Shown piece after piece: positions 11,538 to 49,650 of a stretch of 64,000 nt of DNA; position 1 is the first letter of the stretch, and every line of letters starts with the position of its first letter. Source of the DNA: a bacterium (lineage in GTDB: Bacteria > Bacteroidota > Ignavibacteria > UBA10030); contig JAZDJN010000064.1 in the NCBI GenBank assembly GCA_043803945.1, positions 1 through 64,000 on the forward strand, written 5' to 3'. The translations under genes and the position numbers were made by a program. The notes beneath the pieces are model-generated. The model saw only the letters and a list, made by a program, of their open reading frames with translations, did no database searches and was not told the DNA's origin.

Positions 11538-11648
11538 AAGACTCTCCATAACTCTTCCAAAATTATAACGGCATTTCACCTGAGATGCCGCTTCATTGTA
11601 CAGGTCCTTCACAGGATTGTTACATCGTATTTGGAATCTATCGCAGAG

Positions 11649-12100
11649 TAGATCCCCCGCCTTCGCTACGCTCTGGCGGGCAGGCCGACAATAGCATTCG
11701 GAGAACACTGATATGTGGTTAGGAGAATAACAAGAAAAGGACAGTGATCCCAAAATGTTTACCCGCCGAAATGTTTTCTATGAAGGCGGGATTCTATTTG
11801 GGATCTGCTATACGGTGATGAGCTCTACCGCATGATAGATCCCCGATAAAAGCAATCGGGGAACACTAGGGGTACTCAGTGTAAAAAGAAGGATAGCGTT
11901 TCCAGCATGTCTCTGGCTGGAATCTGTAAAACGGAACCAGAGCTTCTATAAAGCAGATCCCCCCGATAAAAAGCATCGGGGCAGGCCGATAAAAGCAATC
12001 GGGGAACACCCGTGGGTGGAAAAAAGGAAAATCAGTGATCCCAAAGTGTTCACCCGTCGTAATGTTTTCTATGAAGGCGGGAATCTATTTGGGATCTGCT
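11649..12100. repeat. BIME-like array of alternating 30-nt REP arms with hairpin insertions
   Basis: Repeated AGATCCCCGAYAAAAGCAWTCGGGGAACAC and its inverted variants. About 270 nt is nearly identical to 22301-22572. Confidence 0.85.
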
Positions 12101-12154
12101 AAGTGGAATTGAATGACTCTACCTGTTCTAGTTCAACCTGGCTGAGTAAATATA

Positions 12155-22192: not shown

Positions 22193-22245
22193 TAACTATT
22201 TCTCTATTTGGTATCTGCTACGCGGAGCTGAATTACAATGCATAA

Positions 22246-22573
22246 TAGATCCCCGACAAAAGCATTCGGGGAACACCAGGGGATTGGAAACAACAGGCAA
22301 AGGACAGTGATCCCAAAATGTTTACCCGCCGAAATGTTTTCTATGAAGGCGGGATTCTATTTGGGATCTACTAAATGGAAATGCATTGCATCGCATGATA
22401 GATCCCCGACAAAAGCATTCGGGGAACACCAGGGGTACTCAGTGTATAAAAGAAGGATAGCGTTTCCAGCATGTCTCTGGCTGGAATCTGTAAAACGGAA
22501 CCAGAGCTTCTATAAAGCAGATCCCCCCGATAAAAAGCATCGGGGCAGGCCGATAAAAACATTCGGGGAACAC
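22246..22573. repeat. Second copy of the BIME-like REP array
   Basis: Near-identical to 11738-12008, including spacers and inserted hairpins. Confidence 0.85.
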
Positions 22574-22608
22574 TGTGAGGTTGGAAAACTCCGAAAAAAT
22601 TGATCCCT

Positions 22609-49521: not shown

Positions 49522-49650
49522 CAGCTTTGAATAATAAACCGCCCTGCCTGCCGAAGTGCCTTCGGCACGCAGGCAGGCATGACGCCAAGACCGCCAAAAA
49601 TGCCAACAGAATTAATAGAGTAAAAGAAGAATCACTTTCGATAACGATGT

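Follow-up and report, generated by a model that had tools for sequence, protein, structure and literature searches.

Tagged hairpins and their clusters are known as REP sequences (Di Nocera et al. 2013, PMC3733652; Quentin et al. 2018, PMC6006769), and REPs inside palindromes have been noted earlier (PMC3733652). The repeats described here lie in a window of 64,000 nt (the whole stretch of DNA that was analysed) from an Ignavibacteria-like genome of 5.54 Mb, assembled in 118 contigs. As far as the available text of these papers goes, they share with REP, REPIN and BIME sequences a hairpin of 20-40 nt whose foot carries an unpaired tetranucleotide, and an arrangement as inverted pairs and clusters in intergenic DNA, in a genome that has many Y1 HUH genes. 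Measured against the same descriptions they also differ: the inserted units are tagged CCTG, CTTG or CCAG (tail CAGG, CAAG or CTGG) in place of the canonical GT[AG]G, single 19-37 nt hairpins rather than REPIN doublets show filled/empty differences, units are nested in their own kind to three deep, and the host repeats H1 and H2 have an RYAG foot, yet no RAYT gene was found next to them.

Other systems resemble the locus in part, again according to the text available for each. The mosaic arrays, with such hairpins between repeats, are like those of Neisseria dRS3/NIME. For Ssn, the C directly after the NTS palindrome matters for binding (Chenal et al. 2025, PMC11893778), and our genome likewise has a GIY-YIG frame between hairpin repeats (on C101) and xTCCC..GGGAx palindromes followed by C, a C that is common to all the families found here. 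Unlike in NTS/SRM, the CGTC tag 5' of the ATTCCC..GGGAAT palindrome is absent from H1, H2, G-type and D-type hairpins, and the C101 frame has none of the usual start codons (ATG, GTG or TTG); in the available text of PMC11893778 the word 'nested' does not occur. Like IS200/IS605 'peel and paste', which involves hairpin recognition on ssDNA and is a known case of a short element sequence selecting the target (PMC6006769), our units leave no target duplication. They are distinct from these elements, as described in that text, in consisting of one hairpin with no gene, and in that the target-like sequence is the loop and not the foot. Literature searches for nested REPs, or for REPs in Ignavibacteria, gave no account of this system, and the supplements of PMC3733652 and PMC11893778 may list more tag types. 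The locus is best placed in a known kind, tagged REPs in BIME/NIME-like arrays, of which the tail type and the deep self-nesting look new.

An earlier note on this DNA had described inserted hairpins that mirror their own target sites and had suggested, as a speculation, that the insertion may be templated or programmable. We consider it rather likely, instead, that the arrays are REP-kind (BIME/NIME-like) mosaics of nested tailed hairpins, that the mirroring has an ordinary origin and that the loop is irrelevant to targeting.

The two arrays and their host repeats

Array 1 occupies a 617-nt gene-free gap (11538-12154) between two convergent genes, an unknown 344-aa ORF and pdxJ. Array 2 lies in a gap at about 22193-22600, flanked by two co-directional ORFs, and includes a 275-nt block with 93.8% identity to 11736-12009. 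The bulk of both gaps is made up of H1 and H2 hairpins (Table 1). H1 is a 27-nt unit, GATCCCAAA-ATGnnTnnn-TTTGGGATC, and a pattern scan of the 5.54-Mb genome found 16 uninterrupted and five interrupted loci; since both forms exist, 'insert' is a fair term for the sequence that divides the latter. H2 is a 29-nt unit, GATCCCCGA-n7-TCGGGGAACAC, with 27 plain copies in the genome (28 regex rows, one of them a false match) and about 11 interrupted ones, and with GTAG, ATAG or GCAG directly before it. When copies were compared by eye, with no alignment tool, the reverse complement of H1 aligned with H2, so that H1, spacer and H2 together usually form an inverted pair from one family. Judged by these sequences, a single hairpin family accounts for H1 and H2, which are its two orientations: AGATCCC-stem-loop-stem-GGGA[AT]CACT, with the tetranucleotide RYAG at the foot. 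They stand inverted and about 30 nt apart in arrays between genes, which is the inverted-doublet and intergenic-cluster arrangement of REP and REPIN sequences. Neither repeat was found in the 85 other genomes of the bacterial family, each being present in 1 of 86, this genome, and a metagenome scan gave four loci, none with any H2, G-type or D-type motif.

Table 1. Hairpin repeats and inserted units in the two arrays of the window
Feature	Positions	Strand	
H2-type repeat GATCC..CGGAGAACAC, interrupted by a G-type hairpin that follows GATCC	11651..11708	+	
G-type hairpin CCCGCC-TTCGCTACGCTCT-GGCGGG in the split H2	11656-11680, CAGG tail 11681-11684	+	
H1 repeat GATCCCAAA..TTTGGGATC with 33-nt G-type insert (11761-11793), H1-type loop AAATGTTTTCTAT	11744..11806	+	
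Plain 29-nt H2 GATCCCCGATAAAAGCAATCGGGGAACAC, ATAG before it; inverted pair with the upstream H1	11838..11866	+	
Third array module, hairpin TTCCAGC..GCTGGAA at 11900-11922	11884..11950	+	
H2 split after GATCC by D-type CCCCGATAAAAAGCATCGGGG (11961-11981) + CAGG (11982-11985)	11956..12009	+	
Diverged H1+insert copy; insert 12052-12084	12035..12097	+	
Plain H2 of the second array	22248..22276	+	
Third copy of H1 + 33-nt insert (22324-22356), within the 275-nt duplicated block	22307..22369	+	
Plain H2	22401..22429	+	
H2 with D-type+CAGG unit (22525-22549)	22520..22573	+	

The third array module also occurs at 22444-22515 and at C95:33646-33878, and in the C95 copy its TTCCAGC..GCTGGAA hairpin holds a nested pair of CCTGCC and TCCGC hairpins. 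A solitary H1 right arm, CTCTATTTGGTATCTGCTA, is present at 22196-22215, 4 nt past the stop of a 1007-aa ORF, and gives the impression that the left half of an H1 had disappeared or that the end of the gene had come to lie over it.

A genome-wide superfamily of tailed hairpins

The insert type that divides H1, here called G-type, has the form CCC[GA]CC-loop-GAAGG[CT]GGG. In the H1 loop it follows AAAATGYTT, in the three window copies as well as at C106:19024, where the insert has 33 nt and a loop, TAGCACGAACCGC, unrelated to H1, and at C54:48925, where it is a 63-nt composite with a further hairpin inside. In H2, G-type hairpins stand after GATCC and are followed by CAGG at five loci, in the same orientation relative to the host unit as in H1; besides the window copy at 11651..11708, the arrangement recurs at C54:48715, C82:725, C27:49410 and C101:33877. 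G-type hairpins with CAGG were detected in 79 of the 86 genomes of the bacterial family (0-1 with backward-pattern controls), with roughly 1,100 matches to the pattern in the 85 relatives. In the relatives G001-G007, many G-type units read CCCGCCTGCC..GGCGGGCAGG, for which two overlapping hairpin registers are possible, CCCGCC/GGCGGG with a CAGG tail or CCTGCC/GGCAGG with a CCCG foot.

Paralogous empty sites were searched for by deleting each of 24,197 perfect hairpins, with boundaries varied by +/-4 nt, and seeking the rejoined 22-mer elsewhere in the genome. This census yielded 141 place/length groups, about 38 of which are CRISPR or tandem-repeat artefacts, leaving roughly 100 units with a paralogous empty site in a genome that holds hundreds of units made of a hairpin and a 4-nt tail (CAGG, CAAG or CTGG). 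A perfect hairpin with a 4-nt tail accounted for 69 of the 141 groups (CAGG 29, CGGG 16, CAAG 9, CTGG 5, TAAA 4, others 6). Their boundary offsets were (0,+4) or (-4,0), and thus the unit is the hairpin plus its tail, without target duplication; the terminal inverted repeats with target-site duplication that define a MITE were not observed, as these offsets leave no duplicated target. The tetranucleotide foot typical of REP and REPIN sequences was present, as a CAGG, CAAG or CTGG tail, in 43 of the 69 events. Over 13,399 hairpins, CAGG was also the most enriched 3' tail (2.3-fold), and 538 tagged hairpins were counted in the genome, 194 of them with one of the five commonest stems (CCTGCC 57, CCCGCC 54, TCCGCC 45, TCCCGA 25 and CCCCGA 13).

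Different units were found at the same targets. At the target GGCACTCAACGG^CGCAAGCACTC, the insert is a nested D-type unit in one copy (C81:20306) and a CCTGCC hairpin in another (C83:1860). Copies of CTGGGAGGGAGC^TC.GCTCCCGAC hold TCCGCC, TCCCGAC or CCCGCC hairpins, and some hosts have as many as four different hairpins at a single point. Targets showed no evident preference for hairpin loops (13 of 50 distinct targets in a perfect small loop, against 34 of 200 nearby control points). Unlike the targets of IS200/IS605, as the available text describes them, no conserved target tetranucleotide appeared among 57 oriented events: no 4-mer was conserved at the left flank, and the first base after the tail was C or T in 44 of the 57. 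Six-frame open frames of at least 120 codons cover 0.89 of the genome, too permissive a mask for the question of hairpins versus genes.

The census also brought out CRISPR-like arrays at C56:64-1577 and C87:189195-189740 (65-67-nt and 61-nt periods). A 62-nt tandem repeat built on CCTTCGGAAGG hairpins was seen at C64:97310-97440, beyond the window, and at C18:53-263, and the same family flanks a RAYT-like gene at C65:26971. In the window itself, a CCTGCC hairpin at 49543-49579, CCTGCCTGCCGAAGTGCCTTCGGCACGCAGGCAGG, has an exact empty-site paralog at C61:20699 and is another member of the tailed-hairpin superfamily.

The CAGG-tailed insert of H2

The second insert type, D-type, is CCCCGAT-loop-ATCGGGG followed by CAGG, or TCCCGA..TCGGGA followed by CAAG. 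The earlier note had called the insert at 11961-11985 a near copy of its host hairpin with a CAGG tag, and this description was confirmed, because CCCCGATAAAAAGCATCGGGG plus CAGG, which is seen again at 22525-22549, has 86% identity to the plain H2 core at 11841-11861. D-type units occupy H2 after GATCC in the window (11956 and 22520) and at C87:307913, and they also occur in the H2 loop and, beside the C101 GIY-YIG frame, within their own loop to three deep. The 26 simple D-type units lie in at least seven different target contexts, among them an NTS-like ATTC^CCGCG hairpin as well as places that in no way resemble the insert. Furthermore, the D-type stem-and-tail pattern was found in 64 of the 86 genomes of the bacterial family (backward-pattern controls, 0-1), with roughly 400 matches in the 85 relatives, and near-identical D-type hairpins were among the matches listed for other genera, which have no H1 or H2.

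This distribution, set against an H2 confined to this genome, argues against the local capture of host sequence that had been proposed for this insert, and indicates that its likeness to H2 reflects shared descent. From the sequences compared, H2 looks like the younger relative, built on a D-type core that has gained new flanks. On this reading insert and host are relatives, and D-type units often insert into, or next to, hairpins of their own type.

A plain local tandem duplication of the H2 hairpin was also considered, with the resemblance in H1 due to chance; the two hairpins at 11956-12009 are indeed adjacent and 86-90% alike, but this reading is extremely unlikely, because the CAGG at the junction is the superfamily tail and is absent from H2 (which ends AACAC), the D-type+CAGG unit is present in other contexts and other genera, and chance is excluded for the H1 insert by the permuted null given below.

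The 33-nt insert with an H1-like loop

In the first copy of the interrupted H1, the left part GTGATCCCAAAATGTTT (11744-11760) is separated by the insert ACCCGCCG-AAATGTTTTCTAT-GAAGGCGGGATT (11761-11793) from CTATTTGGGATCT (11794-11806). The same arrangement is repeated at 22307-22369 and, in diverged form (93% over 69 nt), at 12035-12097, where the stem CCCGTCG has one mismatch, the loop reads TAATGTTTTCTAT and the flank AAAGTGTTC. The coordinates and sequences that had been reported for a 33-nt hairpin splitting H1 at 11761-11793, 12052-12084 and 22324-22356 were verified. The loop word AAATGTTTTCTAT occurs three times in the 5.54 Mb of the genome, always in the window copies, and the three copies belong to blocks that were duplicated (275 nt with 93.8% identity, 69 nt with 93%), in agreement with the note's view that the copies probably derive from single events.

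The resemblance of the loop to the interrupted H1 junction is likewise real and exceeds chance. A scan of 13,065 hairpins for the order flank, stem, copy of the flank, stem, flank, compared with a permuted null, gave the two window copies with intact stems a score of 14, the maximum of the genome, whereas the null reached at most 11; the next scorers were self-nested D-type units, and the third window copy (12053) fell outside the scan owing to its stem mismatch. How close the likeness is depends on where the insert is taken to end. Drawn as 31 nt ending ...GGGAT, loop and host agree at 13/13 (edit distance 0); as 33 nt ending ATT they agree at 12/13 with one indel (edit distance 1); and if the unit is the hairpin plus TAAA on the minus strand the edit distance is 2, which is also that of three other H1 copies from this loop. 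For the sister insert at C106:19039, an exact empty site (C27:10548) fixes the hairpin+TAAA parse. The genome-wide search for rejoined 22-mers gave no exact empty site for the inserts of the window, so their ends are not fixed. Under the 31-nt parse the loop is closer to its own host than to any other H1 copy, and such a 13/13 match is what one would expect from local copying. At 12037, in the diverged copy, loop and flank are separated by an edit distance of 4, and this drift indicates that no constraint maintains the likeness.

As ssDNA, 11742-11812 is predicted to form one hairpin nested in another (-14.6 kcal/mol, z -5.07, with none of 200 shuffles as good). By its stem and the GAAGG asymmetry the insert belongs to the G-type subfamily; the other loops in that subfamily are TTCGC..GCTAC on the strand with the tail at its 3' end. 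A G-type unit that has this same variant of the stem is present 80 nt upstream, at 11656. The safest statement is that the insert is a G-type stem with an H1-type apex, seated in an H1 loop. It is best read as a stem/loop chimera that arose in one event and was later copied to three places, and the presence of an H1-type loop inside a foreign stem supports the view that host-type sequence passed once into an inserted hairpin. We attempted to derive the chimera from a single standard event, namely target duplication, a circle junction, loop inversion, stem crossover or a quasi-palindrome template switch, and none of those tried leads in a single step to the order flank, stem, flank copy, stem, flank. 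The probable cause is a local template switch, or an exchange of strands, within the nested palindromes. In a genome-wide search for other chimeras, 5,521 pairs of loops common to different stems were obtained, mostly through chance sharing of 10-mers.

One could go further and take the hybrid at 11761-11793 as a snapshot of stem/loop exchange between element and host during single-strand cutting and rejoining, a proposal that we find doubtful. If it were true, such exchange would be a birth route for REP families with new stems or loops, and would make single hairpins of about 20-35 nt the mobile unit themselves.

RNA elements and loop-guided insertion as alternatives

The arrays might instead be structured RNA (terminators, stabilisers or non-coding RNA), with inserts that are helix expansions selected at the RNA level and not mobile DNA. 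In favour of this are the position of array 1 between convergent genes, compensatory changes in the stems (CCCGCC/GGCGGG against CCCACC/GGTGGG, for example), an RNA-library contig that covers 11660-11873 without a difference, and a second contig, of 1151 nt, that corresponds in pieces to the C54 array. The exact match of the first contig, from a public metatranscriptome run, also means that the insert did not arise as an artefact when this genome was assembled. Two sister runs gave nothing on this stretch. However, the RNA contigs have a depth of 2.6, at which DNA carry-over is possible, with the strand not given, and REPs are often transcribed without transcription being their origin. No Rfam family matched in 12.5 kb at E up to 1. 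Moreover, units of hairpin plus tail were found in either orientation and in numerous unrelated contexts for which empty paralogs exist, and the stem-and-tail patterns extend across 64-79 of the 86 genomes. In our view an RNA origin is unlikely.

We judged still less probable, and indeed very improbable, the idea raised by the earlier note that the loop of an inserted hairpin pairs with its target, or is copied from it, and thereby aims the element. What speaks for it is that the 33-nt insert is the top outlier among 13,065 hairpins, that with one choice of ends its loop equals its own host at 13/13 and beats the other H1 copies, and that, as a weaker case, the G-type insert at C27:49418 has CGATGC in common between loop and flank. 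There is also a precedent in IS200/IS605, where a short internal guide pairs with the target (PMC6006769); in the available text on the known systems, though, the guide is the 4-nt foot and not the loop (PMC6006769). Against it, the H1 site takes inserts with unrelated loops (C106 and C54), identical hairpins occupy unrelated targets, loop and flank have diverged in the copy at 12037, and the likeness of loop and target is same-strand identity rather than complementarity. The check that the note itself had put forward, a comparison of loops with flanks, gave no excess: 688 distinct CCC..GGG hairpins behaved as the permuted null, with six scores of at least 8 against 6.6 expected and two of at least 10 against 0.6, the top scorers being self-nested D-type units and the window insert. 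Neither a pairing guide nor a general templated or programmable insertion is upheld by these results.

A second apparent mirror, GCTTCAG in the C54 insert, was discarded as sequence of the element's own family, since it is also present at C65:95217 in a non-H1 context. At C27:49410-49470, inspection by eye of the other strand extends the likeness to a 7-mer, CGCATCG, in the upstream flank, and the flank variant GCATCGTAG was seen in no other H2 copy compared, a weak hint that is not significant alone.

Candidate enzymes

Searches of the genome gave 12 matches to Y1_Tnp (RAYT-like) and 13 small GIY-YIG frames. One of these frames, at C101:46017-46241, whose nearest solved relatives are UPF0213 proteins (E ~5e-6), has H1/H2 and D-type units on both sides, the flanking arrangement of the Ssn type, and 12 tagged hairpins were counted within 500 nt of it, against 1.4 expected over all 13 genes. 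Around it (C101:45600-46740) we also observed a D-type unit nested three deep, three CCCGATAnAAAGCAT left arms and three CGGGACARG right arms. Another GIY-YIG gene, at C112, is flanked by the NTS-like repeat ATCCCCGCGAAAGCGGGGATCCAG. Among the RAYT-like genes, the one at C72:16568 has four tagged hairpins beside it and is flanked by CCCGCC..GGCGGG+CTGG. In this 118-contig assembly, repeats flanking a RAYT gene (a REPtron) were thus seen for CCCGCC..GGCGGG+CTGG at C72 and not for H1/H2, which were absent within 700 nt of all 12 Y1_Tnp loci. Proximity is what makes these enzymes candidates for a link to H1/H2 or to the G-type subfamily.

A proposed origin of the arrays and its meaning

Returning to the REP-kind mosaic as the preferred explanation, the inserts belong to an older superfamily spread across the bacterial family, each a single GC-rich hairpin with a CAGG, CAAG or CTGG tail, rarely TAAA, and with stems such as CCCGCC, TCCGCC, CCTGCC, CCCCGA(T) or TCCCGA; read on the other strand, the tail is a CCTG-type tag at the foot. 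Such units are seen as filled-versus-empty differences of paralogous repeats, without target duplication and stacked to three deep, and it is from the sequences of these paralogs that we infer movement of the hairpins. They may be moved or copied as ssDNA by HUH Y1 (RAYT-like) transposases or by small GIY-YIG (Ssn-like) nucleases. In the case of the 33-nt insert, one G-type unit would have acquired an H1-family loop in place of TTCGC..GCTAC and then spread with the array block, and the loop would have no role in target choice.

This removes the tempting idea of a hairpin that aims itself by its loop. The 12 HUH and 13 small GIY-YIG genes become candidates for defined substrates, which is relevant to Ssn-like ssDNA tools. 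REPIN doublets are usually regarded as the mobile form, and if single 19-37 nt hairpins do move alone, they would rank with the smallest known units of mobile DNA. The picture that we propose instead is that of an old superfamily of CAGG-tailed mini-hairpins in an Ignavibacteria-like lineage, which nest in other repeats and in each other.
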